A stretch of DNA of 64,000 bases from Candidatus Latescibacterota bacterium (GCA_965221775.1 CBDCSU010000005.1:384001-448000), one strand, 5' to 3'; shown: positions 15,445-62,700, numbered from the stretch's first letter. The notes: generated from the letters alone by a model not told the origin. Translations and numbers: made by a program.

Positions 15445-15486
15445 GACTCCCGATCCCGTGCCCGGCCGGCGGCGCCGCGAGGGCGG

Positions 15487-46785: not shown

Positions 46786-47582
46786 TGGCCACCCGCATCG
46801 CCGTCTGCGGCCTCGGCGGCCGCATGGGCCAGCGCCTGGGCCACCTCGTCCTCGACGCCGACGACCTGGAGCTGACCGCCGCCAGCGAGCGGCCCGGCCA
46901 CGCGTGGCTGGGACGCGACGCCGGCGAGGTCCTGGGCCGCGGGTCCCTGGGCGTGAGCCTCCAGCCCTCCATCGCCGCGGCCGACGCCGACGTGGTCGTC
47001 GCCTTCACCACCCCGGAGGCCACCCTCGCCGACGCCGCCGCCAGCGCCGCCGCGGGCACGGCCATGGTCGTGGGCACCACCGGCATGTCGGCCGACCAGC
47101 TGGACGAGTTCCGCGCCGCCGTGGCCTCCATCGCCTGCGTCTTCGCGCCCAACTTCTCCACCGCCATGAACGTCCTCTTCAAGCTCGTGGAGGAGGCGGC
47201 GAGCATCCTCGGCGACGACTACGACATCGAGGTCGTGGAGGCCCATCACCGGCACAAGGTCGACGCCCCGAGCGGCTCCGCCCTGCGCCTGGCCGAACGG
47301 GCCGCCGCCGGCGTCGGGCGCAACCTCGACGAGGTCGCCGTCCACGGCCGCCAGGGAGAGACCGGCGAGCGCACGCGCAAGGAGATCGGCCTCCACGCCC
47401 TGCGCCTCGGCGACGTCGCCGGCGACCACTCGGTGTTCTACGGCGCCGCGGGGGAGTACCTGGAACTGCGCCACCACGCCACCAGCCGCGACGCCTTCGC
47501 CCTCGGGGCCCTGCGGGCGGCGCGCTTCGCCGCCGCCGCCGAGCCGGGGCTCTACGACATGGGGGACGTGCTGGGGTTGTAG
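46785..47582 (+). CDS. dapB: 4-hydroxy-tetrahydrodipicolinate reductase
   Basis: GRMG, VGTTG, APNFS, EAHHRHKVDAPSGSA. Confidence 0.93.
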   Translation: MATRIAVCGLGGRMGQRLGHLVLDADDLELTAASERPGHAWLGRDAGEVLGRGSLGVSLQPSIAAADADVVVAFTTPEATLADAAASAAAGTAMVVGTTGMSADQLDEFRAAVASIACVFAPNFSTAMNVLFKLVEEAASILGDDYDIEVVEAHHRHKVDAPSGSALRLAERAAAGVGRNLDEVAVHGRQGETGERTRKEIGLHALRLGDVAGDHSVFYGAAGEYLELRHHATSRDAFALGALRAARFAAAAEPGLYDMGDVLGL

Positions 47583-47586
47583 AGCT

Positions 47587-48384
47587 TCAGGAGGTGGAGG
47601 GGCTGCGCTCGGGGCTGGGGTTGAGGAAGGCGGGCCTCAGGGTGCGCAGCTTGTCGCGCAGGCGCGCCGCCTCCTCGAAGTTCTCGGCTTCCACGGCCAC
47701 GTGGAGGTCGCGCTCCAACTGCTCCTTCTGAGACAGGGGACGCTCCTTCTCCAGTTCCTCGTACCAGTCGGACAGGAAGGTCAGCTCGGGGCAGTCCTCG
47801 TCCATCAGGTCCTCCTCCCCCTCCCACTCGCCGAGGAACTGCTCGATGCGGTCGATGCCGCGCTGCACGTGGCGCAGGGCGGCGTCGTAGTCCTTGGCCT
47901 CGAGGGCGGCCATGGCCCGGGCCCGGGCCTGCATCATCACCGCGTGGGGCAGGTACTGCTCGAAGTACCACTTGACCTCGTCGCTGTCGGCGTGCTCGTG
48001 GACGAGGTCGAAGATGGCCAGGTTGTGCCCGGTGTCGCGCTCCACCCCCTCGTAGTCCTCCAGGAAGAACAGGGCGAGATAGCGCTGGTAGTACTGCCAG
48101 GCTTCCTGGAAGAGGTCCTCGCAGCTCTGCTCGTCGAGCTCGGGGCCGCTTCTGGGCAGCGATCCGGGGCGGCTGCGCAGGGACTGGCGGAAGTGATGGA
48201 GGAAGGACTCGGCGCCGTGGGGCCGGTGTCCGTCGGGGCGGCCGGAGACGTCGAGCTGGAGGATCCCCATGTCGATGCGGATCTGGATCTTCTCCGTGCC
48301 GTCCCGGGCGGTGATCCGGCGGGCGATGAACTCGTCCGGGTCGAAGGGCCACGAATTGAGCAGGTCACCGATGTCGTATTTCAT
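47587..48384 (-). CDS. UvrB/UvrC-motif-containing protein
   Basis: C-terminal AVEAENFEEAARLRDKL; N-terminal QIRIDMGILQL..GRPDG.RP. Confidence 0.75.
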   Translation of the reverse strand: MKYDIGDLLNSWPFDPDEFIARRITARDGTEKIQIRIDMGILQLDVSGRPDGHRPHGAESFLHHFRQSLRSRPGSLPRSGPELDEQSCEDLFQEAWQYYQRYLALFFLEDYEGVERDTGHNLAIFDLVHEHADSDEVKWYFEQYLPHAVMMQARARAMAALEAKDYDAALRHVQRGIDRIEQFLGEWEGEEDLMDEDCPELTFLSDWYEELEKERPLSQKEQLERDLHVAVEAENFEEAARLRDKLRTLRPAFLNPSPERSPSTS

Positions 48385-48459
48385 GGCCCCCCTTCGGCTT
48401 GTGTCACCAGAATATAGCCCTGCGCAGGGCCGTCCGCTACAAGGGAAGGGGGGCCCCGG

Positions 48460-49992
48460 CTAGCGCCGGGAGACCTTGATGCTGCCCACCGCGACGCCGA
48501 CGACGAGGGCGATGACGGCGGCGATGATCAGGGCGTTGCGGATCACCCGGGCGCGCTGCTCGACGCGGATGGTGATGTCCTTCTCCTGGGCCTCGATGCG
48601 CTCCGGGCCCTCGTACCCGGCGGCCTCGACGCGCACGTCGTACTCGCTGACGCCGATGCCGGCGGGCTGCACGAGGGTGATGTTCACCGGCTCCTTCTCC
48701 CCCGGCAGGATGCGGTCGATCGTGTCGGGCTCGGAGGACCAGGTCCAGTCGAGGGGCGGGGTCAGCACCAGGTGCACCCTCTCCACCTCCAGGGTCCCGG
48801 TGTTGAGCAGGTCGACGCGCACCTTCACCTCCTCGCCCGTGCGCACCTCCTGGTAGCGGTTGGCGATGAGGGTCTCGAGGGCGCCCCGGCCCCGGGGGAT
48901 GAGCTCGAAGCGCTCCTTGTTCCCGGGGATCGTGTTGATCTCCTCCAGGGGGATGGGGCCGCGGTGCTTGCGGTTCAGCTCGGCGATGCGCTCGAAGCCG
49001 GCGGCCTCGGTGACGAAGACGTAGAACTCGATCGTCTGGTCGACGTAACCGCGGCTGAGCTTCTCGGGGATCTGCAGCTCCAGCTCCAGCTGCTGGCGCG
49101 TCACCTCCTCGCTGAACTTCACCTGCGTGAGGTTGGCGTTGGTCCCCGGGTCGACGAAGGCGGGGGTGATCTCCCGCGGCAGGTTGACCAGGGCCAGGCG
49201 GAAGGTCTTCTCGTCCTCGGCGAGGCGCTCGAGGATGAGGTCGAAGTTGACCCGCGTGTTGAGGTCGCCCTCCTGGGAGAACTGGACCGAGTTGATCGTC
49301 GGCAGGTCCTGGCTCGACTCCCGGCGCATGACGATCTGCAGCAGCTCCTTGCTGCCGTCGAGGTAGGTGAGGTCGACGACCACGTCCTCGTAGTCCTGGA
49401 GCAGCCGGAAGGTGAGCCGCGTACGCTCGCCCAGGGGCAGGGAGGGCACGAGGATCTCGTAGGGCTCGGCGACGATCGTTCCGAGGCGCTCGGTGAGGGA
49501 GACCTTGAGGTTCTGGATCTCCAGCAGCGGCCGGATCTGGCTCTCGTCGCGGTCGGGGTTGAGAGACAGGGCCTGGCCGAGCTGGGAGGCGTTCTCCAGG
49601 ACGATATCGACCTGGCGGCGGCCGTCGAGGGTGCGGTACTTCCGCGCCTCGCGGATGGTGACGCGGGTGGCGTCCTTGAGGAACTCCAGGCGCGTGCGGT
49701 CGAGCTGGAAGACCGCCTCGCTGTACTTCAACTCCGACTGCAGGAAGGCGCGCCGGGCTTTGTTCAGGCTCTCGAGGGTTTCGATCTTCTCGTCGTAGAG
49801 CTCCTGGATGATGTCGTACTCGCTCTTGTTGTTGTCCATCTCCAGCTTGCGGCTCTCCACCTCCCACTGCGCCTTGCGCAGCTTGATGTCGTAGAGGCGC
49901 TGCTCCTTGGTGCGCAGGTCCTTGGTCGCCCCCAGGGGCGAGGCCAGGAGGCCGAGGAGGAAGACGCCCAGGCAGGCGCGGGCGGCGGTCAT
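48460..49992 (-). CDS. Exported hairpin + Ig-like/NEW3 domain protein with C-terminal TM anchor (paralogue B)
   Basis: Signal peptide, coiled-coil N-terminus, NEW3-like VDLLNTGT...PPLDW...ILPGEK...YDVRVEA, terminal TM followed by KVSRR. Confidence 0.75.
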   Translation of the reverse strand: MTAARACLGVFLLGLLASPLGATKDLRTKEQRLYDIKLRKAQWEVESRKLEMDNNKSEYDIIQELYDEKIETLESLNKARRAFLQSELKYSEAVFQLDRTRLEFLKDATRVTIREARKYRTLDGRRQVDIVLENASQLGQALSLNPDRDESQIRPLLEIQNLKVSLTERLGTIVAEPYEILVPSLPLGERTRLTFRLLQDYEDVVVDLTYLDGSKELLQIVMRRESSQDLPTINSVQFSQEGDLNTRVNFDLILERLAEDEKTFRLALVNLPREITPAFVDPGTNANLTQVKFSEEVTRQQLELELQIPEKLSRGYVDQTIEFYVFVTEAAGFERIAELNRKHRGPIPLEEINTIPGNKERFELIPRGRGALETLIANRYQEVRTGEEVKVRVDLLNTGTLEVERVHLVLTPPLDWTWSSEPDTIDRILPGEKEPVNITLVQPAGIGVSEYDVRVEAAGYEGPERIEAQEKDITIRVEQRARVIRNALIIAAVIALVVGVAVGSIKVSRR

Positions 49993-51512
49993 CGCCGGCT
50001 GATCCGGACGCTGGCCACGCCGATGCCGACGACGAGGAGGACGAGGATGCCGATGAGGATGACGTTGCCGGCGATGTTCGATCGCGCCCCCACGTGGATG
50101 GTCAGGTTCTTCTCCAGGGACTCCACGTTCTCGTTGCCCACCTGGCCCTGGGCCTCGACGCCGAGCTCGTAGTTGCCCACGGCGATGTCCGGCGGCGGCC
50201 GGGCGACGATGTCGAGGGGCGCGCGCTCGTCGGGCTCGAGGCGCTTGATGAGCAGGGGCGTCACCTCCTCCTGCCACTGGTAGGGCAGGTCGAGGGCGGC
50301 CTTGATGTTCTGCACCGCCACGCTGCCGCGGTTGAGGAACTCCACGCGGATGCGCAGGTCCTCGCCGGTCTGGATCTCGCGGTAGGTGTTGGAGACCAGG
50401 ACCTCGAGCTTGCCGATGCCCTTGGGGATGAGCTCGAGCTTGACGTAGTTGGCCCGCAGCCCCTGGAGTTCTTCCTCCGGCACCGGGTCGTCGCCGAAGC
50501 GCGCCCGGATGGCGTTGATGCGGGCGTACTCGCGCGGCTCGGTGACCAGGGCGAAGAACGGGCGCGCCAGGCCCACCAGGTTGCGGTCGAGCTTCTCGGG
50601 GATCTCGAGGACGAGGCCGAGGGTGTCCTTGGACTTGTTCTCGTCGAACTTCACCTGCGTGACCTTGGCGCCGGCGTTGCGGAAGGAGAAGTCGATCTTG
50701 CGCGGCAGGCCGAGGACGGCGAGGGCGAAGCTGCGCTCCTCGTCGGAGAGGCGCTCGAGGATGAGGTCGAAGCGCACGTCCTGCTGCAGCTCGCCCGACT
50801 GCGAGAACTGGGCGGAGTTGATGCTCGGCAGGTTCTCGCGCCCGCCCTTGCGCAGGGTGACGGGGATGCTCTCCAGGGTGTCGAGGTAGCCGAGGACCAC
50901 GGCCACCGCCTCCTCGTCGCGCAGGAGGCGGAAGGTCAGGGTGTGCCGCTGGCCCACGTCGAGGGCGGGGACGCGGGTCTCGTAGGGCTCGCCCACGAGG
51001 GGCCCGTTCTTGAGGGAGACGAAGATGTTCTCCACGCGCAGCAGGATCCGCAGGTCCTCCTCGGTGAGGGAGGGATCGACGACGAGGGCATCGCGCGTGT
51101 CGGAGGCGTTCTCCACGACGATGTCGACCATGCTCTTGCCGTCGGGGCTCTTGTACTTGCGGGCGTCGCGCACGACGATGTGGGTGGCGTTGCGCAGCAG
51201 CTCGAGCTTGGTCTCCTCCAGCAGGATCTCGGCCTCCTCCTTCTGCAGCCGCGCCTCGGCGTAGCTGTTCTGCGCCTGCTTGTAGGTGAGGAGGGGCACG
51301 AATCCCGAGTCGTGGAGGGCCCTTGTGAGGCGCAGCTCCTCCAGGGCCTGGTCGAGGCTGGTGCGGCGCTGCTCGAGCTGCAGCTGGCGCTCGTCGAGCT
51401 GCAGCTTGTCGAGCTGCTGCTGGCGCGTGAGGCCGGCCCCCGCGGGGGCCGCGGCGGCGTCCGCGGCGGCGGCGAGCAGAAAGCCGGCCAGAAGCGCGAA
51501 CCTCGCCCTCAT
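49989..51512 (-). CDS. Exported hairpin + Ig-like/NEW3 domain protein with C-terminal TM anchor (paralogue A)
   Basis: Same architecture as B; shared blocks ARKY..DG..VDIV.ENAS, EPYE, LP.INS.QFSQ.G, FDLILERL, L.IPEKL, ELIP.G.G.LE; terminal TM followed by RISRR. Confidence 0.75.
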   Translation of the reverse strand: MRARFALLAGFLLAAAADAAAAPAGAGLTRQQQLDKLQLDERQLQLEQRRTSLDQALEELRLTRALHDSGFVPLLTYKQAQNSYAEARLQKEEAEILLEETKLELLRNATHIVVRDARKYKSPDGKSMVDIVVENASDTRDALVVDPSLTEEDLRILLRVENIFVSLKNGPLVGEPYETRVPALDVGQRHTLTFRLLRDEEAVAVVLGYLDTLESIPVTLRKGGRENLPSINSAQFSQSGELQQDVRFDLILERLSDEERSFALAVLGLPRKIDFSFRNAGAKVTQVKFDENKSKDTLGLVLEIPEKLDRNLVGLARPFFALVTEPREYARINAIRARFGDDPVPEEELQGLRANYVKLELIPKGIGKLEVLVSNTYREIQTGEDLRIRVEFLNRGSVAVQNIKAALDLPYQWQEEVTPLLIKRLEPDERAPLDIVARPPPDIAVGNYELGVEAQGQVGNENVESLEKNLTIHVGARSNIAGNVILIGILVLLVVGIGVASVRISRR

Positions 51513-52912
51513 TCGACGTACCCCATCAGCCGCCGCAGCTCGGCCTGGCGCGAGATGTAGGTCTCCTGGTTCTGGAACAGGACCTCCTGGGCGGTGAAGA
51601 ACTGCTGGCGGAAGTTCTCCAGCACCGCCTCGTCCACCTGGCCCCCCTTCTCCTGCACCTGCTGCTTGATCTCCAGGCGGCGGCGGGCGATGACCACGCT
51701 CTTCTCCTGCAGGCGCTGGGTCTCCTCGGCCTCGAGCATCGACTGGTAGGCCTGGCGCACGCCCAGCTCCACCGAGGCCCTCAGGTCGCGCAGCTGCACC
51801 TGCAGGCCCTGCAGCCGGGCGCGCTCGAGGCCCTCGCGGCCCAGGCGGGCGCCGCCCTCGAAGATGGGGATGCGCGCCTGCACGCGGGCCGACCAGGTCG
51901 CCTCGCCCTCGTCCTCGGGCGGGTCCGCCTCGTCGAGGCTGAGGCCGGTCTCCACGCCGACGCCCCAGGTGCCGCCCTCGCGGCCGACGCTGAGGCCCGC
52001 CCGGCGGCGGCCGTCGCCGACGCCGGCGTCGGCGCTCAGGTCGGGGGCGTACTCCCAGCCGATCTCGCGCAGGACGCGCCGCTGCTCGTCGAGGAGCTGC
52101 TCGGTGACGCCGATCTCCACGTCGTGAACGAGGGCCCGGCCCACGGCCTCGTCCTGGTCGACGGCGAACGGTTCCAGCTCGCCGCCGAGGCGCAGGTCGA
52201 GGCCGATGGGGCGGCCGATGAGGCGCAGGAGCTCCATCTTGTCGCGCAGCTGCTCGCGCCGGATGCGGTTGATGCTCAGCTCCTCCTCCAGGACGTTGAG
52301 CTCGGCCTGCAGCTTCTGCTCCTCGGAGGCGAGGCGCTTCTCGAAGCGGGCCTGCTGGCGCGCGAAGGTGGCCTCGAAGTTCTGCCGCGAGGCGACGCGC
52401 AGGGCGATCTGCTGGTCCTTGAGCAGGATCAGGTGGTAGAGCTCCCAGACGCGGGAGCTGACCTCGTAGACCTTGTCCTGGTAGTCGAAGACGGCCTTGC
52501 GCAGATCGGCGCGCAGCTGGATCTCGGAAGCGGCGTCGGGGCCGAACTCGAAGAGGCGCTGCTGGAGCAGCAGCTCGCTGGCCAGCTGGTCGCGGGTGGT
52601 GGCGTCGCCCTCGGCGCGCAGGGCGTCGTAGCCGGCGGTGAGGCTCACCCGCGGCATCAGGCGGGAGCGGACGACGACGGCGTCGCTCTCGACCTCCTCG
52701 ATGCGCTTGCGGGCGCCGATCAGCTCGCGGTTGTGGGAGAAGGCCGCGGCGAGGCAGTCGGCCAGGCCGAGGGGCGCCGCCCGGGCGGCGGAGTCGGGCA
52801 CCGCCGGAGGCCCCTCCGCGACGGCGGGACCGAGGGCCGCGGCCACTCCCGCGATGACAACCGCCGTCCGCAGGTGGAGGGCCCGGGACGGCGAAAAGGT
52901 GAGCAAAATCAA
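51509..52912 (-). CDS. TolC family outer membrane efflux protein
   Basis: LADCLAAAFSHN, MPRVSL, QRLFEFG, second repeat APDLS...IPIFEGG, VRQAY, LRRLMG. Start (TTG ~52906-52912) uncertain. Confidence 0.82.
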   Translation of the reverse strand: MILLTFSPSRALHLRTAVVIAGVAAALGPAVAEGPPAVPDSAARAAPLGLADCLAAAFSHNRELIGARKRIEEVESDAVVVRSRLMPRVSLTAGYDALRAEGDATTRDQLASELLLQQRLFEFGPDAASEIQLRADLRKAVFDYQDKVYEVSSRVWELYHLILLKDQQIALRVASRQNFEATFARQQARFEKRLASEEQKLQAELNVLEEELSINRIRREQLRDKMELLRLIGRPIGLDLRLGGELEPFAVDQDEAVGRALVHDVEIGVTEQLLDEQRRVLREIGWEYAPDLSADAGVGDGRRRAGLSVGREGGTWGVGVETGLSLDEADPPEDEGEATWSARVQARIPIFEGGARLGREGLERARLQGLQVQLRDLRASVELGVRQAYQSMLEAEETQRLQEKSVVIARRRLEIKQQVQEKGGQVDEAVLENFRQQFFTAQEVLFQNQETYISRQAELRRLMGYVE

Positions 52913-52943
52913 TAGGTTCCGTAGGGTCTGGCAGATCGCGCTT

Positions 52944-52972
52944 ATCCTACTGGTGAAGGTGGACCATGTCAA
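52944..52972 (-). promoter_or_regulatory. sigma70 promoter of the tolC operon
   Basis: Minus strand TTGACA-N17-TAGGAT. Confidence 0.65.
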
Positions 52973-53006
52973 GATGGGGTTGCGCGCAAGCCATTGCTTG
53001 ACATGG
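52964..53006. repeat. Imperfect palindrome containing two back-to-back TTGACA boxes
   Basis: CCATGTCAAG-N23-CTTGACATGG with central TTGCGCGCAA. Confidence 0.8.
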
Positions 53007-53032
53007 GTCACGTACCCCCCGCACGTTACCTC

Positions 53033-53058
53033 TGTGGACCGCGGGTGTGGACCGCGGG
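53033..53058. repeat. 13-bp tandem direct repeat
   Basis: TGTGGACCGCGGG x2, upstream of the ABC ATPase. Confidence 0.85.
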
Positions 53059-53080
53059 CGACTTTCCCGGAGAGAGGCGA

Positions 53081-53803
53081 ATGCTCGAGATCATCGACAT
53101 GACCAAGCACTACGGCGACGTGCACGCCGTGAACGACCTCACCCTGACCATCGAGCCGGGCGAGATCTTCACCATGCTCGGCGCCAACGGCGCCGGCAAG
53201 ACGACCACCCTCATGGTGGCCCTCGGGTTCACCGAGCCGACGGCCGGGACGGTGAAGATCTGCGGCGTCGACGTCACGCGCGACCCGCTCGAGGCCAAGC
53301 GCCACGTGGCCTACGTGTCGGAGAACGTCATGCTCTACGGCAACTTCACGGCCCGCCAGAACCTCGAGTTCTTCACCAAGCTCGGGGGCCGCAAGCAGGT
53401 GGAGGCCTCGGAGTACGACCAGGTCATGGACCGCGTCGGCCTGCAGCGCGACGCCTTCGACCGGCGGGTGAAGGGGTTCTCCAAGGGCATGCGCCAGAAG
53501 CTCGGCATCGCCATCGCCATCATGAAGAACGCCGAGGTGATCCTCCTCGACGAGCCCACCTCGGGACTGGACCCCAAGTCGGGCGCCGAGTTCCTGCAGC
53601 TGCTGGCCGAGCTGCGCGAGGAGAACAAGGCGATCTGGATGACGACCCACGACATCTTCCGGGCCAAGCAGATCGCCGACCGCGTGGGCATCATGGTCGA
53701 GGGCAACCTGGTGAAGATCTTCACCCGCGACGAGCTCGGGCAGGAGGACCTGGAGTCGATCTACGTCGAGTTCGTGAGCCAACCCGCCGAGCAGGCGGCC
53801 TGA
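53081..53803 (+). CDS. ABC transporter ATP-binding protein
   Basis: GANGAGKTT, FSKGMRQK, LDEPTSGLD, TTHD. Confidence 0.92.
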   Translation: MLEIIDMTKHYGDVHAVNDLTLTIEPGEIFTMLGANGAGKTTTLMVALGFTEPTAGTVKICGVDVTRDPLEAKRHVAYVSENVMLYGNFTARQNLEFFTKLGGRKQVEASEYDQVMDRVGLQRDAFDRRVKGFSKGMRQKLGIAIAIMKNAEVILLDEPTSGLDPKSGAEFLQLLAELREENKAIWMTTHDIFRAKQIADRVGIMVEGNLVKIFTRDELGQEDLESIYVEFVSQPAEQAA

Positions 53804-53909
53804 CGGCCGTCGACGCCACCGGCCGCCGGCCCCGACCCGCCTTGCGCCCCCGCCCCCGCATGTCCCCGGTCCGCGGCGCCCCCGGGGCCGCGCTTCCATC
53901 GAGGCTTCC

Positions 53910-55295
53910 ATGCTCCTGCGACTGATCCGCAAGGAAGTCCTGCACAACATCCTGAGCTTCCGCTTCGCCGTCACCTACGGCCTGCTCTTCGTCCTCGTCC
54001 TGCTCGCCGTCTTCCTCATGGGCAACGAGCACCGTCAGCGCATGGAGACCTATACCCGGCAGGAGTCCCAGGCCCGCGACCGCCTGGAGGAGCTGGCCGG
54101 GATGCAGGACGCCACCGAGCAGTTCCGGCAGATCCAGCGCGAGGACTTCGCGGGGGTACGTCAGCCGGGGGCGCTGGCCGTCCTCGCCCGCGGTCTCGAG
54201 GGCAGCCTGCCGGCGCAGATCTCCTCCGGCGGCTGGTTCACCACGCACAGCTCCGAGGACCGCCTGGGGCGCAACATCCTCCTCGAGATCTTCCAGGCGC
54301 CCGACTTCGCCTACGTGGTCAACATGGTCCTGAGCCTGCTGGCCCTGCTCTTCGTCTTCGACTCCGTCTGCGGCGAGAAGGAGCGGGGCACCCTCAAGCT
54401 CCTGCTGTCGGGCTCGGTCCCCCGGGACACGGTGCTGCTGGGCAAGTGGGTGGGCGGCTACCTCTCCATCGCCGGGCCCTTCGCCGCCGCCGCCGCCGCC
54501 GGCTTCCTCTACCTCTCCCTCTCCGGCTCCCTGCCGCTCGAGACGGAGGTCGTCTCCCGTTTCGCCGCGATCCTCGCCGTCTCCTTCCTCTATATATCCG
54601 CCTGCTTCAGTCTCGGTCTGCTGATCTCCACCCTCGCCCACCGCGGCGCCACGGCCCTGCTCATGGCGCTGCTGGTGTGGATCGGCTGGATCCTGGTGGT
54701 GCCCAACCTGGCGCCTGTCGTGGCCCGCCTGGCGGCGCCGGTGCCGTCGCGCCAGGTGATCGACGCCGAACAGCAGGCCATCGACCGCGAGGCGGAACTG
54801 CTGATGGGGGCCATCCGCAAGAGCAAGGTCTACGGCGACCGGCAGCAGATGGAGCGCATCCAGGAGGAGACGGAGCAGCGCAAGCGCAAGCTCGACGGCT
54901 TCTACAAGGACCGCATGTCGCGCCAGACCTCCCTGAGCCAGAACCTGGCGCGCCTGTCGCCCTCGGCCAGCTATCTCCTCGCCGCCACCCGCCTCGCCGG
55001 CACCGGCCCCGACCTCTTCGCCCACTTCTCCGACGCTGTCGAGCGCTTCCACGGCGCCCACGACGACTTCCGCAGCCAGATGTACGGCAACGTCTCCTGG
55101 ACGCGGGGGCCCGATCCGGACATCCAGGACGAGGACTGGTTCGACCCCGACGACGTGCCCCGGCTGTCCATGTTCTCCGAGAGTCTCTCCGAGGCCTTCG
55201 ACGGGGCCCTCTTCGACATCCTGCTGCTGGTCGTCTTCAACGTGCTGTTCTTCCTGCTGTCGTACGTCTTCTTCCTCCGATACGACGTCACCTGA
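53910..55295 (+). CDS. ABC-2 type permease with large periplasmic loops
   Basis: IRKE..SFRF, GEKERGTLKLLL, VLLGKW, ARLSP, FLRYDV. Confidence 0.85.
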   Translation: MLLRLIRKEVLHNILSFRFAVTYGLLFVLVLLAVFLMGNEHRQRMETYTRQESQARDRLEELAGMQDATEQFRQIQREDFAGVRQPGALAVLARGLEGSLPAQISSGGWFTTHSSEDRLGRNILLEIFQAPDFAYVVNMVLSLLALLFVFDSVCGEKERGTLKLLLSGSVPRDTVLLGKWVGGYLSIAGPFAAAAAAGFLYLSLSGSLPLETEVVSRFAAILAVSFLYISACFSLGLLISTLAHRGATALLMALLVWIGWILVVPNLAPVVARLAAPVPSRQVIDAEQQAIDREAELLMGAIRKSKVYGDRQQMERIQEETEQRKRKLDGFYKDRMSRQTSLSQNLARLSPSASYLLAATRLAGTGPDLFAHFSDAVERFHGAHDDFRSQMYGNVSWTRGPDPDIQDEDWFDPDDVPRLSMFSESLSEAFDGALFDILLLVVFNVLFFLLSYVFFLRYDVT

Positions 55296-55315
55296 GCCGT
55301 TCCGGGAGAACGCCC

Positions 55316-56749
55316 GTGCTGCTGCACATCGTCCGCAAGGAACTCCTCGACCAGCTGCTGTCCCTGCGCTTCGCCATCGCCTGCGGCGTCTGCCTCATCG
55401 TCTTCGTCCTCAGCGCCGTGGTGCTCACGCGGGACTACCGCGAGGGCCTGTCGACGTACAACATGAACCGCGTCATGCACCGCAACGAGCTGCAGCAGCG
55501 CGACCAGATCTGGAGCCTGAACGAGGGAGTCACCGTCGACCGGCCCCTGAACCTCATGAACACGCTGGTGCGCGGCCTGTCGAAAGAGCTGACCGAGAGC
55601 GTCCGCGTGCAGCCCGGGAACCGCCTCGACTTCCCCGAGGGCTGGGAGCAGAACCCGGTGCTTCCCCTGTTCCCGCCGGTGGACTTCGTCTTCATCGTCG
55701 GCATCATCATGAGCCTCCTGGCCCTGGCCTTCGCCTACGACGGGGTCTCGGGCGAGGCCGAGACCGGCGTCCTCAAGCTGCTCATGTCGTACAGCGCGCC
55801 CCGCGACCTGGTGCTCCTCGGCAAGTGGCTCGGCGGCTACCTGGCCCTCATCGCGCCCTTCACCGTCTCCTTCGTCCTCGCCCTGCTCGTGGTTCTGCTG
55901 TTCCCCGACGTGCAGCCCGATACCGAGAGCTCGCTGGCCCTGCTCGCCCTCTACGGCCTCGCCCTGCTCTACCTGGGCGCCGTGTACAGCCTGGGCCTGC
56001 TCGTCTCCTGCCGCACCCGGCTGGCCTCGACCTCGATCACCGTCCTCCTGCTGTTGTGGGTCTCCCTGATCCTGGCGGTGCCGAACATGGCGCCGTACGT
56101 GGTCAGCCAGGTGGTGCCGATCCCCTCCGCCGAGGAGGTGGACCGCGAGAAGCAGGCCCTGCAGAGGGAGCAGCAGCAGCGGTTCCAGGAGATCATCGCC
56201 GAGGAGCAGGAGCGGCTCGGCCGCGACAACGTGTGGGGCGACGAGTCGGTGCAGGAGCGGTTCCGGGTGGCGGCGGAGGAGTCCCAGGCGGAGATACAGA
56301 AGATCGAGGACAGTTTCCGCACCCAGGTGGCGGGGCAGACGCGGCTCTCCGGCATTCTCGCCCGCATGTCTCCCCTGACCTCCTTCAACCTCGCCGCCTT
56401 CGACCTGGCCGCCGCCGGCATCGCCCAGGAGGAGGAGTGGGTGGCGAGCCTGGAGGCCTTCGGCGACACCTGGTCGGCGTACTCGGAGGAGAAGCAGCGC
56501 GCCTACAGGGAGTGGATCCATGAGCAGATGGCCGCCTCCCCCAGCGGCGGCGTGACCATCACGTCGCAGGACATGGAGCGGTTCAACCAGGACCTGGATC
56601 TGTCCGACGCGCCGCGGTTCAGCTTCTCCCACATGGGCGTTTCCGACCGCCTCGCCGCGGTCTACGTCGACCTGGCCTTGCTGGCCCTGTGGAACGTCGC
56701 CTTCTTCATGCTCGCCTACCTTTCCTTCCTGCGCTACGACATCAACTGA
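55316..56749 (+). CDS. ABC-2 type permease with large periplasmic loops (paralogue)
   Basis: VRKE..SLRF, GEAETGVLKLLM, VLLGKW, ARMSP, FLRYDI. GTG start with GGGAG RBS. Confidence 0.85.
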   Translation: MLLHIVRKELLDQLLSLRFAIACGVCLIVFVLSAVVLTRDYREGLSTYNMNRVMHRNELQQRDQIWSLNEGVTVDRPLNLMNTLVRGLSKELTESVRVQPGNRLDFPEGWEQNPVLPLFPPVDFVFIVGIIMSLLALAFAYDGVSGEAETGVLKLLMSYSAPRDLVLLGKWLGGYLALIAPFTVSFVLALLVVLLFPDVQPDTESSLALLALYGLALLYLGAVYSLGLLVSCRTRLASTSITVLLLLWVSLILAVPNMAPYVVSQVVPIPSAEEVDREKQALQREQQQRFQEIIAEEQERLGRDNVWGDESVQERFRVAAEESQAEIQKIEDSFRTQVAGQTRLSGILARMSPLTSFNLAAFDLAAAGIAQEEEWVASLEAFGDTWSAYSEEKQRAYREWIHEQMAASPSGGVTITSQDMERFNQDLDLSDAPRFSFSHMGVSDRLAAVYVDLALLALWNVAFFMLAYLSFLRYDIN

Positions 56750-56797
56750 CGCTGGCCCAACCCGGGCGACCGGGCCGATCGGGCCACAGGAGATTCC

Positions 56798-57727
56798 ATG
56801 GCCCATCACGAGTTCGTCCCCGGCCACTACCACAACACCCTCGGCTGGCACGAGCCGGTCCTGGAGGTCGCCCCGGGGGACTCGGTCTCGACGACCACCG
56901 TCGACGCCCGCGGCCGGGACCGCGACGGCGAGCAGGTGGCGGTCCGGGGCAATCCCCAGACCGGTCCCTTCCACGTCACCGGCGCCGAGCCCGGAGACGC
57001 CCTGGCGGTCACCCTCGACCTGGTGCGGCCGAACCGGCCCTGGGGCTTCACCGCCACCGCCGTGGCGCCCAACGTGCTCGACCCCGGGTTCCGGCCGCGC
57101 TTCGACGACGAGATCGAGGTCACCCGCTGGGCGGTGGACGCCGACGCCGGCACCGTCCGCCTCAGCGAGCCCGAGGGGCCCCTGTCGCGGCTCTCCCTGC
57201 CCCTGGACCCCATGGTCGGGTGCTTCGGCGTGGCCCCCGAGAGGGGCCAGGCGATCTCCACGGCCACCTCCCACCGCCACGGCGGCAACATGGACTACCG
57301 GGGGTTCCGCCAGGGGGTGACCGTCTGGTTCCCCGTCTTCGCGCCGGGGGCCCTGTTCCACATCGGCGACGGCCACGCCGTGCAGGGCGACGGCGAGATC
57401 GTCGGCACCGGGGTGGAGATCTCCTTCGACGTGCGCTTCACGCTGGACCTGGTGAAGGGCTCGTCCATCGGCTGGCCCCGGGCCGAGGACGACACCTGGC
57501 TGATGACGGCGGGCAACGCCCGGCCCCTGGACCAGTGCGTGCAGCACGCCACCACCGAGATGCTGCGCTGGCTGGAGACCGACCACGGCCTCGACGCCCG
57601 CACCGCCCACCTGCTCCTCGGCCAGGCGGTCGCCTACGACGTGGGCAACATCTACGACCCGGCGTACACCATGATCTGCAAGGTGAAGAAGAGCCACCTG
57701 AAGGCGATCCGCGGGGAGGCCGGATGA
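56798..57727 (+). CDS. Acetamidase/formamidase family protein
   Basis: NPQTGPF...GAEPGD, HGGNMD, GDGHAVQGDGE...GVE. Confidence 0.9.
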   Translation: MAHHEFVPGHYHNTLGWHEPVLEVAPGDSVSTTTVDARGRDRDGEQVAVRGNPQTGPFHVTGAEPGDALAVTLDLVRPNRPWGFTATAVAPNVLDPGFRPRFDDEIEVTRWAVDADAGTVRLSEPEGPLSRLSLPLDPMVGCFGVAPERGQAISTATSHRHGGNMDYRGFRQGVTVWFPVFAPGALFHIGDGHAVQGDGEIVGTGVEISFDVRFTLDLVKGSSIGWPRAEDDTWLMTAGNARPLDQCVQHATTEMLRWLETDHGLDARTAHLLLGQAVAYDVGNIYDPAYTMICKVKKSHLKAIRGEAG

Positions 57728-58638
57728 GCAGCCCTCTCGTCGTCACCTGCATCTCCTACGCCCCCGTGGGCGGTTCCGACGAGGAGGTGGTGGAGCGGAC
57801 CCACGAGGACCTCAAGGGGCTGGTGGGCCGCGCCGCCGGGGCCACCGGGGCCGACCTGATCGTGCTGCCCGAGACGATCTGCCGGACCTTCGACGAGGAG
57901 GTGCCCGAGGGCCCCACGACGCGGCTGCTGGCCGGCCTGGCGCGGGAGCACGGCTGCTACGTCACCGTGCCCGTGCACCAGAAGGAACCCGCCACCGGCG
58001 CCGTGTACAACGTCCTCGGCCTCCTCGACCGCCAGGGGGAGCTGGCCGGCATCTACCGCAAGTACATCCCCGTGTACCCGGAGTTCGACCACGGCACCCG
58101 CCCCGGCCCCGGGGCGCACCTGATCGACACCGAGTTCGGACCCGTGGGCGGCGTCATCTGCTTCGACCTGAACTTCGGCGAGCTGCGGGCCGAGTACAAG
58201 AAGCTCAAGCCGCGGCTGCTGCTCTTCAGCTCCATGTACCACGGCGGCCTGGTGCAGAACTTCTGGGCCCTCGACGTGCAGGCCTTCTTCGCCGGCTCCG
58301 TGTACCGGGGCACGCAGTGCACGATCATCGACCCCCAGGGGACCACCCTGGCCCGGAGCAACAACTACCAGCCCTGGGCCTCGGCGCCGATCAACCTCGA
58401 CTACGAGTTGGTGCACCTCGACCGCAACCAGGGCCGCTACGACGAGATCCACCGCAAGTACGGCGACGGCGTGCGCATCGTCACCGCCGGCGAGGTGGGC
58501 ACCTCGGTGATCTACAGCGAGTCGGCCGCGCGCACCGCCGCCGACATCGTCGAGGAGTTCGAGCTGATCCGGCTCGACGACTACTTCGACTGGTCGCGCA
58601 AGCTGCGGACGGAGCAGCTGGAGAAGGCCCCGGCCTGA
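57724..58638 (+). CDS. Carbon-nitrogen hydrolase (nitrilase superfamily)
   Basis: E-K-C triad: VLPE, YRK, ICFD. ATGA overlap. Confidence 0.88.
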   Translation: MSSPLVVTCISYAPVGGSDEEVVERTHEDLKGLVGRAAGATGADLIVLPETICRTFDEEVPEGPTTRLLAGLAREHGCYVTVPVHQKEPATGAVYNVLGLLDRQGELAGIYRKYIPVYPEFDHGTRPGPGAHLIDTEFGPVGGVICFDLNFGELRAEYKKLKPRLLLFSSMYHGGLVQNFWALDVQAFFAGSVYRGTQCTIIDPQGTTLARSNNYQPWASAPINLDYELVHLDRNQGRYDEIHRKYGDGVRIVTAGEVGTSVIYSESAARTAADIVEEFELIRLDDYFDWSRKLRTEQLEKAPA

Positions 58639-58711
58639 GCCGCTGGACGGACCTCGCTCCGGGCGGGTTATTGTTCTTCATCCATCGTCTCACTGCGCCG
58701 AGGGAGCCCGG

Positions 58712-59725
58712 ATGTCCCCTGCCCTTCTTCTCCTCCTCCTGACCCTGGTGCCCGGCGCGCTCCTCGGCCAGGAGCGGCCACCGACGCCGGTCATCGTCGC
58801 CGAGGTCCTCGAACAGCCCCTCGTCGAGGATCTCTCCTTCGTCGGGCGCATCCTGCCCGTGCGTTCCAGCCGGGTCGCCGCCGAGACCGAGGGCAAGGTG
58901 GTGCAGCGGTTCAGGGACGCCGGCCAGACCGTGCGCGCCGGCGACCCCCTCTTCGCCCTGGCCAACGATCCGCTCCAGGCGGCGCTGGAAGAAGCGGAGG
59001 CCGATCTCGCGCTGAGGCGCTTCATCCACGACGGCAGCCGCCGGTTGCGCGCCACCGACTCGGTCTCGGAGCAGGACCTGCGCGTCAACGCCTTCGAGCT
59101 GGCGCGCGCCGAAGCCCGGCTGAGCGGCCTCCAGGCCCAGGTGGAGAACCTCCTCGTCCGCGCCCCCTTCTCCGGGCACATCGTCCGCACCTCCACCGAG
59201 GTGGGAGAGTGGGTCGGCCGCGGCGGCGAGATCGCCCAGGTGATCTCCATCGACACGGTGCGCGTCATCGTCGAGGTGCCCGAGCACCATGTGCCGCAGC
59301 TGGCCTTGGGGGACACCGCCGCCATCCTCGTCGACGCCCTCGGCGGCGATCCGGTCCACGGCCTCGTAACCGTCATCTCCGCCGAAGGCTACGCCGCCTC
59401 GCGCACCTTCCCGGTCGTCGTCGAGGCCGCCAATCCGGCAGGCCGCATGCGCAGCAACATGTCGGCGCGGGTGCGCTTCCGTATCGCCCAGGCGACGGCA
59501 TCGCTCCTGGTGCACAAGGACGCCCTGGTCTCCGGTCCTCGGGGGCAGGTGGTGTACCTCGCCCGCGACGGCAAGGCCCTCGGCCGCCCCGTCGAAGCCG
59601 GGCTGGCGCACCAGGGTTACGTGGCCGTCACGGGCGACCTCGCGCCCGGCGATCTGGCCGTGGTGCGCGGCAACGAGCGCCTCCGCGACGGCCAGGCGGT
59701 GCGCATCATCCGCCGGCAGCCGTAA
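58712..59725 (+). CDS. RND efflux periplasmic adaptor (membrane fusion protein)
   Basis: AETEGKV..GQTVRAGDPL, hairpin, RAPFSG, VPE, SRTF, GNERLRDG. Confidence 0.9.
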   Translation: MSPALLLLLLTLVPGALLGQERPPTPVIVAEVLEQPLVEDLSFVGRILPVRSSRVAAETEGKVVQRFRDAGQTVRAGDPLFALANDPLQAALEEAEADLALRRFIHDGSRRLRATDSVSEQDLRVNAFELARAEARLSGLQAQVENLLVRAPFSGHIVRTSTEVGEWVGRGGEIAQVISIDTVRVIVEVPEHHVPQLALGDTAAILVDALGGDPVHGLVTVISAEGYAASRTFPVVVEAANPAGRMRSNMSARVRFRIAQATASLLVHKDALVSGPRGQVVYLARDGKALGRPVEAGLAHQGYVAVTGDLAPGDLAVVRGNERLRDGQAVRIIRRQP

Positions 59726-59731
59726 GCCGCC

Positions 59732-62700
59732 ATGCGCCTGATCGCCACAGCCATCCAGCGGCCCGTCAGTGTCACCGTCGGCGTGCTCCTGGTGGCGCTC
59801 TTCGGCCTGATCTCCCTCTTCCGCATCCCCGTTCAGCTCACCCCCGACATCGACCGGCCGATCATCACCGTCTCCACGGTGTGGCCGGGCGCCAGCCCGG
59901 AAGAGGTCGAGCAGGAGATCGTCCAGCGCCAGGAGGAACAGCTCAGGAGCGTCGAGGGACTGGTGCTGATGACCAGCGAGAGCAACGACAGCCGCGGGGT
60001 CGTCTCCCTCGAGTTCAACGTCGGCGTCGATCCGGACGCGGTGATGCTGCTGGTCTCCAACAAGCTCGACCAGGTCTTCGGCTATCCCCTCGACGCCGAG
60101 CGGCCGGTGATCTCGGCCGGCGGCACCGGGCCGAGCGGGGCGATCACCTGGATCATGCTCCAGCCCCTGCCGGACCGCGGCGATCTGGATATCGAGCGCT
60201 ACCGCGACTTCGCCGAGGAGGTCATCAAGACCGCCCTCGAGCGCGTGCCCGGCGTCTCCCGGAGCGACATCTACGGCGGCTACGACCGCCAGCTCCAGGT
60301 CATCGTCGATCCCCGGGCCATGGCCGCGCGCCAGATCACCGTTCAGGACCTGGCCCGGGCCCTGGCCCGCGAGAACGCCAATACCAGCGCCGGGACCTTC
60401 GACGAGGGCAAGCGCCGCTACATCGTGCGCACCGTCGGTCAGTACCAGCAGCCCGGCGACATCGAGCAGGTGGTCGTCCGCTCGGCCGACGGCACCCGGG
60501 TCACCGTCGGCGAGATCGCCCGCACCCGCCTCGGCTACGTCCGCACCGTGGCCTCCGTGCGCCAGAAGGGCCAACCCGCCATCGCCATCAACGCCCGGCG
60601 CGAGACCGGGGCCAACGTCCTCGAAGTCATGGACGGCATCCGCCGCACCATCGGCCAACTCAACGAGGGGCCCCTGGCCCGCGAGGGCCTCTACCTCACC
60701 CAGGTCTACGACGAGACCGACTACATCGACAGCGCCATCGGCCTGGTGCGCTCCAACATCCTCATCGGCGGCACCCTGGCGGTGATGGTGCTCTTCATCT
60801 TCCTGCGCACCGTCAGCTCGGTGGCGATCATCGCCACCGCCATCCCGATCTCGATCGTCGGCACCTTTCTGGCCATGTGGCTCCTGGGCCGCAACATCAA
60901 CGTCATCAGCCTGGCGGGGATGAGCTTTGCCGTGGGCATGGTCATCGACAACGCCATCGTCGCCCTCGAGAACATCTTCCGCCACCAGCAGATGGGGAAG
61001 AGCCGCGCCCGCGCCGCCCTCGACGGGGCCACGGAGGTCTGGGGGGCGCTCCTGGCCAGCACCCTGACCACGGTGGCCATCTTCCTGCCCATCGTCTTCG
61101 TCGAGGACGAGGCCGGTCAGCTGTTCCGCGACATCGCCATCGCCGTCTCCTGCTCGGTGGTGCTCAGCCTGATCGTGGCCGTCTCCGTCATCCCCAGCCT
61201 GGCCAACAAGATCCTCGGCGGCGACAGACGCGGCGGGGGCCGGCTGGCCGCCTGGGGCGAAGGGGTGCGGACCTTCATCGCCCGGAGCGTCTTCCGCATC
61301 AGCGGCAGCACGGTGCTGCGCCTGGGGGTCATCGCAGGGCTGATCGGCCTCTCGGTGGCCATCGCCTGGAACCTGCTGCCCAAATCGGAGTACCTGCCCA
61401 CGGGCAACCGCAACCTGATCTTCGGCATCGTCCTGCCGCCCCCGGGGTACAACCTCGACGAGCTGATCCAGGTGGGCCAGACCGTCGAGGACGTCCTGCG
61501 CCCCCACTGGGAGGCGGCCTCGGACCCCGACGGCCCCCAGGCCCGAGCCCTGCCGGGACCGCCGATCGCCAACATGTTCTTCGTCGCCTTCGGCCGCTCC
61601 GCCTTCATGGGAGCGCGCTCGACCGAGCCGGAGCGGGTGCGCGAGCTGATCCCGATCATCCAGGGGCCGGTCCTGGGCGGGGTGCCGGGGACCTTCGCCG
61701 TCGTGCAGCAGTCGAGCCTCTTCCAGCGCGCCACCGGCAGCGGGCGCTCCATCGACATCGAGATCACCGGGCCCGATCTGGACCACCTCGTCGGGCTGGG
61801 GGGACGGGTATTCGGCCAGGTCCGGCAGGTCGTGCCCGGCGCCCAGGCCCGCCCCATTCCCAGCCTCGACCTGGGCAATCCGGAAGTCCGCATCCTCCCC
61901 GACCGCGTGCGCGCCGCCGACCTGGGCCTGTCGGCGCGCGACATCGGCTCGGCGGTCAATGCGCTGATGGATGGCGCCATCGTCGACGGCTACCAGTTCC
62001 AGGGCGAGGAGATCGACCTGGTGCTGCGGGGCGAGGAGGACTGGTTCCGCACCCAGGATATCGCCGCCCTGCCGATCTACACCCCGCGGGGCCAGCTGGT
62101 GCCGCTGAGTGCCGTGGCCCGCGTCGAAGTGACCACCGGCCCCGAGCAGATCAACCACATCGAGCGCGACCGGGCGATCACCGTCCGGGTCATCCCGCCG
62201 GAGACCGTTCCCCTGGAGACGGCCCTCGACGCGCTGCGGACCGAGATCGTCCAGCCCCTCGTCGATTCCGGCGATCTGGCCCCGCCCTACCAGATCCAGC
62301 TCTCCGGCTCGGCCGACGACCTGCGGCGCACCCGCCAGGCCTTGCAGTGGAACTTCCTGCTGGCCCTGGTGATCACCTACCTGCTGATGGCCGCCCTCTT
62401 CGAGAGCTTCCTCTACCCCTTCGTCATCATGCTCAGCGTGCCCCCGGCGCTGGCGGGCGGCATCCTCGGGCTGGAGGTCGTCAACCGGACGCTGACCTAT
62501 CAGCCCCTCGACATCCTCACCATGCTCGGCTTCGTCATCCTCATTGGCGTGGTCGTCAACAACGCCATCCTCATCGTCCACCAGACGCTCAACATCCTGC
62601 GGGAGGCGCCCGAGACCCCGCTCGGAGAGGCGATCCACGACGCCGTCTTCAGCCGCGTGCGGCCGATCTTCATGTCCACGATCACCAGCGCCCTGGGGAT

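Follow-up and report, generated by a model that had tools for sequence, protein, structure and literature searches.

Six genes of a Latescibacterota contig as a candidate tripartite ABC-TolC exporter with adaptor-like proteins outside the membrane fusion protein family

The window, a stretch of 64,000 nucleotides from Candidatus Latescibacterota bacterium (GCA_965221775.1 CBDCSU010000005.1:384001-448000) with a base composition of about 70% G+C, holds six genes at positions 48460-56749. Genes for a TolC-family protein and for two paralogous adaptor-like proteins, A and B, lie on the minus strand, and genes for an ATP-binding cassette (ABC) ATPase and two ABC-2 permeases on the plus strand. The six genes are considered here as a candidate export system spanning the cell envelope, in which A and B would take the place of the canonical periplasmic adaptor, a membrane fusion protein (MFP). 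The locus is real and well delimited, and consists of the following features, the genes being given as open reading frames (ORFs):

48460-49992, minus strand: gene B, adaptor-like paralogue (ORF and translation, 510 aa)
49989-51512, minus strand: gene A, adaptor-like paralogue (ORF and translation, 507 aa)
51509-52912, minus strand: TolC-family outer-membrane factor gene (467 aa with the adopted TTG start at 52912)
52913-53080, no strand: divergent intergenic region of 168 bp, read from the sequence
53081-53803, plus strand: ABC ATPase (ORF, 240 aa), DrrA/GldA-like with a single nucleotide-binding domain
53910-55295, plus strand: ABC-2 permease 1, type V, NosY-like (ORF, 461 aa)
55316-56749, plus strand: ABC-2 permease 2, paralogue of permease 1 (ORF, GTG start, 477 aa)

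A first reading made from the sequence of the window, below called the original prediction, had described the TolC-family gene and the two paralogues as chained by 4-bp stop/start overlaps, and both overlaps are present in the sequence: an ATGA at 51509-51512 joins the stop of the TolC-family gene to the start of A, and another at 49989-49992 joins the stop of A to the start of B. Divergent transcription from the ABC ATPase and the two ABC-2 permeases, described in the same reading, was confirmed with a spacer of 168 bp. The promoter scan of 47400-58800 found one sigma-70-like site in comparison to 0.3 expected in shuffled sequences, and this sole site (TTGACA-17-TAGGAT, minus strand 52972..52944; a consensus match only) is situated in the 168-bp spacer and faces the TolC-A-B operon. 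The start of the TolC-family gene is uncertain, the composition-based gene caller having favoured 52801 over the TTG at 52912. The full-length alignment of A with B has 40% identity and no large gaps (E 4e-121), and permease 1 shares 32% identity with permease 2 (E 7e-63).

Pfam matched A and B to NPCBM_assoc/NEW3 only (E ~2e-11 each; A 2.1e-11), with scores of 44.3 bits for A and 44.4 bits for B against a cut-off of 24.4, the domain of B covering residues ~384-458. Neither protein matched HlyD, HlyD_3, HlyD_D23 or Biotin_lipoyl at E ≤ 0.01 in Pfam, and the same scan does detect HlyD_D23 and HlyD_3 in an MFP encoded at 58712-59725. The statement of the original prediction that the locus has no HlyD/MacA/AcrA-type adaptor is therefore correct inside 48460-56749, as far as Pfam is concerned, but a gene for an HlyD-family MFP is present only 2 kb downstream. 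None of A, B and permease 2 is represented by a model in NCBIfam.

The TolC-family protein was matched by Pfam OEP (outer membrane efflux protein; 6.3e-31) in two stretches reaching residue 464, and these two tandem repeats in an exported protein of ~450 aa are those of a TolC-type outer-membrane factor. TIGR01844 aligned on residues 47-464 with 75.4 bits, well below its cut-off of 225, and the protein is thus a divergent member. The ATPase was matched by ABC_tran (8.1e-31), and its best NCBIfam matches were drrA and GldA, both under the cut-off. Permease 1 was matched by ABC2_membrane_2 (1.8e-32) and DUF3526 (8e-9), and permease 2 by the same two families (6.4e-25 and 3.4e-5, respectively). 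Both permeases exceed the ABC2_membrane_2 cut-off, and the ATPase is a separate protein with a single nucleotide-binding domain. FtsX and MacB_PCD were found by Pfam in neither permease, while the same tool finds them in a protein of the related locus L015. Pfam detected no ABC_membrane or HlyD domain in the six genes, which sets the cluster apart from type I secretion, and no NosD-, NosL- or NosZ-type family in the six genes or in the 12 flanking genes scanned (41960-63998).

The AlphaFold2 model of A (85-sequence alignment; pLDDT 94.5, pTM 0.78) begins with a signal-peptide-like helix at residues 2-19, followed by an antiparallel alpha-hairpin in which two helices of ~37 residues (30-68 and 74-109) are joined by a turn to a length of ~55 Å. 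Three beta-sandwich domains follow (112-219, 230-324 and 354-475, the last being NEW3), and then a C-terminal transmembrane helix (480-506) and the residues RISRR. B (48460-49992, minus strand) is composed of a signal peptide, an N-terminal hairpin, three beta-sandwiches of which the last is NEW3, and a transmembrane helix ending in KVSRR. Judged by their sequences, A and B would be type-I membrane proteins with a signal peptide that is presumably cleaved. By the positive-inside rule, the basic tail would place the C-terminus of A in the cytoplasm, and consequently the stalk and the hairpin in the periplasm.

The lipoyl, beta-barrel and membrane-proximal domains of MFPs were not found in A or B by Pfam, and the model of A has three immunoglobulin-like (Ig-like) beta-sandwiches. 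The membrane anchor is a C-terminal transmembrane helix and not an N-terminal one. A and B are accordingly not MFPs, since they have none of the three domains and the anchor is at the opposite end. When the model of A was compared to the PDB with Foldseek, only generic matches to tandem Ig-like domains were obtained (TM-score ≤ 0.31), none of the solved structures having this architecture. A complex prediction for TolC 40-467 with the hairpin and first domain of A (25-225) and of B (22-226), each with a 31-row alignment and without controls, reached a score of 0.01 (mark 0.32). As a single TolC protomer and a small tip-to-tip interface suit such a prediction poorly, the score weighs neither for nor against binding.

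The relationship of the hairpin was analyzed with a family profile of 85 sequences searched against all PDB sequences, which gave 24 matches at E ≤ 1. These included 17 MFPs, six NEW3-type sandwiches of glycosidases and one chance match to a ribosomal protein, and no unrelated coiled coils were among the 24. All 17 matches to the N-terminal region were MFPs, and they covered the alpha-hairpin alone. The best of them were the TriAB fusion 6vej (4.5e-5), MexJ (4e-4), a MacA/MexA chimera (1.3e-3) and MexA (3e-3), and the profile also matched ZneB, MacA, AcrA and MexC-like proteins. The family consensus 'R-aqe-L-fekglv-S' aligned in register on MexA RYKLLVADQAVS and on the equivalent tips of TriA, TriB and MexJ. 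The consensus tip thus has the pattern R-x3-L-x6-S, the 'RLS' motif, known as the TolC-binding tip motif of adaptors.

Over the 85 sequences, the tip columns had R in 33, L in 77, G in 59 and S or T in 61. Within the orthologues of A, L66 was invariant and G70 nearly so, and within those of B, L65 and T72 were invariant; the hairpin tips are strongly conserved within each paralogue. Some relatives carry the precomputed labels PF25876/PF25893, which are presumably Pfam families of MFP helical hairpins.

One scan of 185,579 species genomes gave 36 loci, designated by L numbers, of which 30 had complete TolC, A and B genes. The 4-bp overlap of the TolC stop and the A start was present in 29 of these 30 loci. 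A and B overlapped in 12 of the 30, and in 14 more the gap between them was at most 13 bp. As the first overlap recurs in 29 and the second in 12 of the 30 loci, they are not due to chance. An orthologue of B followed A in all 33 loci with A, including besides the 30 also L010, L022 and L031, in which the contig ends before TolC. Orthologues of the ATPase and/or the DUF3526 permeases were found in the available flanks of 21 of the 30 loci, both in 16, and the ATPase orthologues, present in 19, were 77-100% identical. The conserved linkage that the original prediction had proposed to survey is nearly invariant for TolC and A, and partial for the ABC-2 genes, these being absent from the available flanks of the remaining nine loci.

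The ABC-2 genes are arranged around TolC-A-B in at least five layouts:

Divergent, ATPase proximal: the window, L001-L005, L008, L009, L023 and L030
Divergent, permeases proximal: L025, L027 and L033
Co-directional, ATPase-HEAT protein-permease-permease-TolC-A-B: L026, with a 19-bp gap between permease 2 and TolC
One strand, permease-permease-(type IV ABC)-TolC-A-B-ATPase: L019
ATPase directly after B: L013 and L024

In 26 of the 36 loci a gene with a UVR motif was found downstream of B, and most of these 26 also have dapB, dapA and purH. Much of the gene order is thus inherited, and conservation alone proves little; the informative signal is the linkage retained through rearrangement. In the seven loci without the conserved downstream genes (UVR-motif, DapB, DapA and PurH), TolC-A-B is kept in all seven and the ABC-2 genes in six. 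Two more distant loci are independent witnesses of the linkage. In L034 (34-37% identity), genes for OEP, a single adaptor, the ATPase and two permeases follow one another on one strand, the OEP gene being upstream of the adaptor gene, and in L036 (Ignavibacteriales, 25-30% identity) the order is adaptor-ATPase-permease-permease. The gap between the adaptor and the ATPase genes is 3 bp in L034 and 46 bp in L036, and the hairpin tip of L036 is canonical, R-x3-L-x6-T. The distant relatives are single-copy, and the two-paralogue TolC-A-B module is a feature of Latescibacterota.

An exhaustive profile search among 1.84 billion representatives (50% identity clusters) identified 1332 clusters of the adaptor-like family at E ≤ 1e-3, among them 228 at E ≤ 1e-30. 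The majority are ~500 aa long and match profile positions ~40-504, most of the hairpin included. The named relatives, all from diderm groups, belong to Latescibacterota, Ignavibacteria/Bacteroidota, KSB1 and Bacteriovoracaceae, and the family also includes clusters in which the commonest phylum is Bacteroidota, Zixiibacteriota or Acidobacteriota. The closest relatives of the window proteins come from metagenome-assembled genomes (MAGs) of Latescibacterota, some of them labelled Gemmatimonadetes. In the cluster representative P0249 (892 aa), an ABC-2 permease is joined to a hairpin-NEW3 protein via the signal-peptide-like segment of the latter. In P0114 (718 aa), the first beta-sandwich domain is present in extra copies behind the hairpin, so that the stalk would be longer, which points to differences in stalk length among family members. 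Fused forms of much greater length (≥ 962 aa) were also searched for, and the only proteins obtained were unrelated multi-Ig surface proteins. Shorter clusters of COG1470/NEW3 proteins (~390-420 aa) were observed in Pseudomonadota and Bacillota with a feature similarity of only 0.76-0.77, which makes them no more than a lead.

The AlphaFold2 model of permease 1 (pLDDT 86.9) has six transmembrane helices, the first of which reaches well outside the membrane; a helical insert at 281-393 (DUF3526) separates the fifth from the sixth. According to the model, both the extended first helix and the insert would be periplasmic. Among solved chains, NosY comes closest (profile E 9.9e-13; Foldseek TM-score to target 0.62-0.78), and ABCG and ABCA transporters rank next both by sequence profile and by fold, which assigns the permeases to the type V ABC fold.

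On balance, the six genes probably make up one envelope-spanning ABC exporter, in which a periplasmic adaptor outside the MFP family replaces the HlyD/MacA/AcrA type. In such a machine, a heterodimer of permease 1 and permease 2 would carry two copies of the ATPase, and A and B would alternate in a ring, probably A3B3. This stoichiometry is proposed by analogy with the 3:6:3 and 2:6:3 arrangements of the resistance-nodulation-division (RND) and MacB pumps and with the two adaptors of TriABC. The six C-terminal transmembrane helices of A and B would anchor the ring round the permease heterodimer, their beta-sandwich stalks would form the lower tunnel, and the six hairpins would meet the TolC trimer in a tip-to-tip docking. 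ATP hydrolysis would move the periplasmic helical domain of the permeases by a MacB-like mechanotransmission, and substrate from the periplasm or from the inner membrane's outer leaflet would be pushed into the adaptor tunnel and out through TolC. An amphipathic small molecule, a lipid or a peptide is a guess at the substrate.

Held more tentatively, at somewhat less than even confidence, is the wider reading that proteins with a hairpin, beta-sandwiches and a C-terminal transmembrane helix form a widespread, hitherto unrecognised second class of periplasmic adaptors. The class would comprise ~1300 clusters in Latescibacterota, Ignavibacteria/Bacteroidota, KSB1, Zixiibacteriota and Acidobacteriota, with an MFP-type TolC-docking hairpin grafted on an unrelated Ig-like stalk that couples NosY-like type V ABC transporters to channels of the TolC family. 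In Latescibacterota, a duplication would have led to an obligate A3B3 ring translationally coupled to its own TolC.

Several observations weigh against the exporter proposed here. Both window proteins carry a degenerate tip motif, with L62/L66/G70/P73 in A and I61/L65/K69/T72 in B instead of R/L/G/S. The resemblance to the hairpins of MFPs is weak and concerns a coiled-coil region, with per-stretch E-values of 0.025-0.1 for TriAB, and hhalign against two single MFPs gave the same register with probabilities of only 2% and 31%. In six of the nine loci where ABC-2 genes are absent from the available flanks, less than 2.6 kb of upstream sequence is available, but L015, L016 and L029 have no ABC-2 genes despite 4.5-8.7 kb of it, so the separation is real there. 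Furthermore, L006 and L007 keep the ATPase and have no permease within 7.7 and 3.3 kb, respectively. Much of the synteny could be inheritance, as the UVR-motif, DapB, DapA and PurH genes are conserved too. The adaptor family is not confined to the six-gene layout, and the adaptor-ABC operon of L036 has no adjoining OEP gene. P0249 is a single cluster representative, and read-through across two neighbouring genes could have produced it artefactually. NosY, the closest solved permease, supplies energy to a periplasmic partner and does not export a solute, and export through TolC is therefore not guaranteed. The MFP and RND pump encoded 2 kb away could be clients of the TolC encoded at 51509-52912. 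All the evidence is computational and comes from uncultured organisms.

The claim of the original prediction that the two paralogues replace the canonical adaptor thus stands in part. In its favour are the hairpin on a membrane-anchored stalk, the in-register match of the family profile to MFP hairpins with the RLS tip motif included, the coupling in 29 of 30 loci, the ABC-2 genes staying nearby through rearrangements, the single-strand array OEP-adaptor-ATPase-permease-permease of L034, the fusion P0249 and the lack of a matching description in the literature covered. Against it are the degenerate tips, the nine loci without ABC-2 genes in the available flanks, the MFP-RND pair and the occurrence of the adaptor family outside the six-gene layout, and the contacts with TolC and the permeases are to be read as proposed ones.

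A rather unlikely alternative is that A and B are accessory periplasmic subunits of a NosY-like mechanotransducing ABC transporter and have no contact with TolC, the hairpin serving oligomerisation or substrate handling and TolC being used by other pumps. Such subunits would be clients or tools of the transporter, comparable to NosD with NosFY or to COG1470-type NEW3 membrane proteins next to ABC-2 transporters. The closest solved permease, NosY, would fit such a role, as would the L036 operon of adaptor, ATPase and two permeases without OEP, the permease-adaptor fusion P0249, the degenerate RLS motif of A and B, and the shorter COG1470/NEW3 clusters of Pseudomonadota and Bacillota, with their similarity of 0.76-0.77 a lead only. 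The MFP-RND pair, for which the 12 flanking genes scanned (41960-63998) included no outer-membrane factor gene, would provide TolC with another pump. However, conservation of this pair is limited to L002-L004, the three closest loci reaching that far, while the TolC stop and the A start overlap in 29 of 30 loci and TolC-A-B remains intact where other synteny is lost. The OEP gene upstream of the adaptor gene on the same strand in the independent L034 also argues for a contact with TolC, and so do the N-terminal PDB matches, all of them to MFP hairpins and aligned in register with the tip that binds TolC. The same invariance of TolC-A-B could, on the other hand, mean that these three genes form a self-contained module, having another inner-membrane partner such as the MacB-type permease of L015 or the nearby RND pump, or acting as a passive tether or channel. 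This is considered improbable, even if ABC-2 genes are absent from the flanks of nine of 30 loci, including the long-flanked L015, L016 and L029, in L015 a MacB_PCD/FtsX permease gene (813 aa) lies 305 bp after B on the same strand, and a gene for a type IV ABC half-transporter lies between the permeases and TolC in L019. ABC-2 genes are beside TolC-A-B in 21 of 30 loci in at least five layouts, the arrays of L026 and L034 are on a single strand, the adaptor gene abuts the ATPase gene in distant relatives (gaps of 3 bp in L034 and 46 bp in L036), and P0249 joins adaptor and permease in one protein.

It is very improbable that the cluster is a characterised or ordinary system that went unrecognised, its adjacency having no special meaning. 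The literature covered consisted of open-access papers and preprints, and the Pfam version used is without the newest hairpin families, which leaves this explanation some room. The full texts yielded no description of a hairpin-NEW3/TolC/ABC-2 family or of this architecture, in agreement with the original prediction, in which the export system was of an unrecognised type. NCBIfam is likewise without models for A, B and permease 2, no solved structure resembles A, and no non-MFP adaptor is described in the accessible parts of two adaptor reviews (PMC13328181, PMC8277102).

In comparison to known systems, the locus proposed here as an exporter is best filed as a variant of the tripartite ABC-TolC systems with a new adaptor architecture. 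MacAB-TolC has in common with it an ABC transporter that has a periplasmic domain, a hairpin-bearing adaptor anchored in the membrane and a TolC-family channel, and is the model for the proposed 2:6:3 stoichiometry and for mechanotransmission from the periplasm to the exterior. The permeases of the locus, however, are six-helix ABC-2/NosY-like proteins, whereas MacB is a four-helix FtsX protein with MacB_PCD. The adaptors consist of three beta-sandwiches with a C-terminal anchor, whereas MacA has lipoyl, beta-barrel and membrane-proximal domains and an N-terminal anchor, and in the locus both adaptors and permeases are pairs of paralogues.

NosDFY(L) resembles the locus in its permease NosY, the closest solved relative, which is an ABC-2 permease acting on a periplasmic protein partner. 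It differs in that the six genes have no NosD- or NosL-type Pfam match and that the permeases of the locus are ~200 residues longer and have a helical periplasmic domain. NosFY is a homodimer and is not known to be linked to TolC. With membrane proteins of the NEW3/COG1470 type, A and B share the C-terminal NEW3 beta-sandwich followed by a transmembrane helix and the position beside ABC-2 genes. The ~500-aa family has an N-terminal MFP-like hairpin, which would be an addition in comparison to these; the shorter clusters are known as low-scoring neighbours.

The YbhGFSR system of Escherichia coli includes an MFP and an ABC-2 permease pair. As in the Helicobacter pylori genes HP1486-HP1489, which also include a TolC-like OEP, a heterodimeric ABC-2 pair is linked to an adaptor. 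In both these systems the adaptor is a canonical HlyD-family MFP (YbhG and HP1488), whereas no MFP domain is detectable in A and B, and the permeases of the locus have in addition the helical periplasmic insert DUF3526. The H. pylori genes are presented as an operon of OEP, MFP and two ABC-2 permeases in the accessible part of PMC9570263. TriABC-OpmH likewise has tandem genes for two paralogous adaptors, and its TriAB fusion 6vej is the best PDB match of the family hairpin; the two adaptors are non-equivalent and 36% identical according to the accessible part of PMC13328181. Unlike in the locus, the inner-membrane part of TriABC-OpmH is an RND pump, and TriA and TriB are canonical MFPs.

According to the accessible parts of PMC8277102 and PMC13328181, every tripartite efflux and type I secretion system is built on one adaptor family, the MFPs or periplasmic adaptor proteins. 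In the part of PMC8277102 that was accessible, only type IV and type VII ABC transporters are named as tripartite partners, and the terms Ig-like, ABC-2 and YbhG do not occur; the terms Ig-like, immunoglobulin, non-canonical and atypical are absent from PMC13328181. If the proposed exporter is real, a second adaptor architecture that keeps the TolC-docking hairpin alone would reveal what an adaptor truly needs in order to open or engage TolC. The confirmed repertoire of envelope-spanning pumps would then gain type V (ABC-2, NosY-like) transporters, and a large family annotated as 'NEW3 domain-containing' or 'hypothetical' in uncultured diderm phyla would get a testable role. As one-copy and two-paralogue versions both exist, the family would also provide a natural experiment on adaptor stoichiometry.

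Some of the related loci include further genes close to the ABC-2 or TolC genes. HEAT-repeat or related proteins of ~400-485 aa have their genes between those of the ATPase and the permeases or next to an additional ABC-2 permease gene, at the following positions:

L026, 4453-5793, plus strand: HEAT-repeat or related protein
L030, 6121-7578, minus strand: HEAT-repeat or related protein
L030, 13384-14589, plus strand: HEAT-repeat or related protein
L030, 16152-17378, plus strand: HEAT-repeat or related protein

The protein encoded at L030 6121-7578 has no Pfam match, is 25% identical to the HEAT protein of L026, and opens with the same conserved N-terminal motif and transmembrane helix as the permeases. 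The HEAT-type proteins of L026 and L030 may be an extra subunit, which is absent from the window.

Directly before the DUF3526 permeases, L013 (17238-20943, plus strand) has genes for a radical-SAM enzyme, an S8-peptidase/DUF1611 fusion and a 105-aa ORF, and L019 (1589-3639, plus strand) has an S8-peptidase/DUF1611 fusion and a 105-aa ORF in the same position. This hints at a modified peptide as the substrate in the L013/L019 clade. In three other loci, a conserved protein of 856-914 aa with long poly-Asp and poly-Gly runs takes the position of the permeases beside TolC or the ATPase:

L006, 3990-6560, minus strand: 856-914 aa protein
L016, 5648-8218, minus strand: 856-914 aa protein
L029, 1595-4339, minus strand: 856-914 aa protein

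This ORF was tried as a fused permease and rejected: its hydrophobic segments number one at most, the permease profile does not match it, and Pfam assigns it to no family. L015 is a locus of a complete Latescibacteria chromosome without nearby ABC-2 genes, and its fused MacB_PCD/FtsX permease is encoded at 13334-15775 on the plus strand. The 13 MAG loci L001, L002, L006, L008, L010, L011, L016, L017, L022, L025, L027, L029 and L033 are labelled Gemmatimonadaceae, Gemmatimonadetes/Gemmatimonadota, Gemmatimonas phototrophica or Planctomycetota, and these taxonomic labels look inconsistent with the gene content.

In the flanks of the locus itself, the MFP and RND genes are located 2 kb downstream of permease 2:

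58712-59725, plus strand: HlyD-family MFP, 337 aa, with HlyD_D23 and HlyD_3 in Pfam
59732-62875, plus strand: AcrB-type RND pump, 1047 aa, with the MFP

That the TolC of the locus mainly serves this RND pump was rejected as the principal explanation because of the restriction of the pair to L002-L004. The 56798-58638 region (plus strand) begins after a 48-bp gap from permease 2 and holds an acetamidase/formamidase-family gene and a carbon-nitrogen hydrolase gene; FmdA homologues are found near the cluster also in L002-L006, L016, L023, L025 and L035, no functional link being evident. On the other side, 75 bp downstream of B and on the same strand, the gene at 47587-48384 (minus strand) codes for an apparently cytoplasmic protein of 265 aa with a UvrB/UvrC motif only, and this UVR-motif gene is probably a case of inherited synteny rather than a member of the system.

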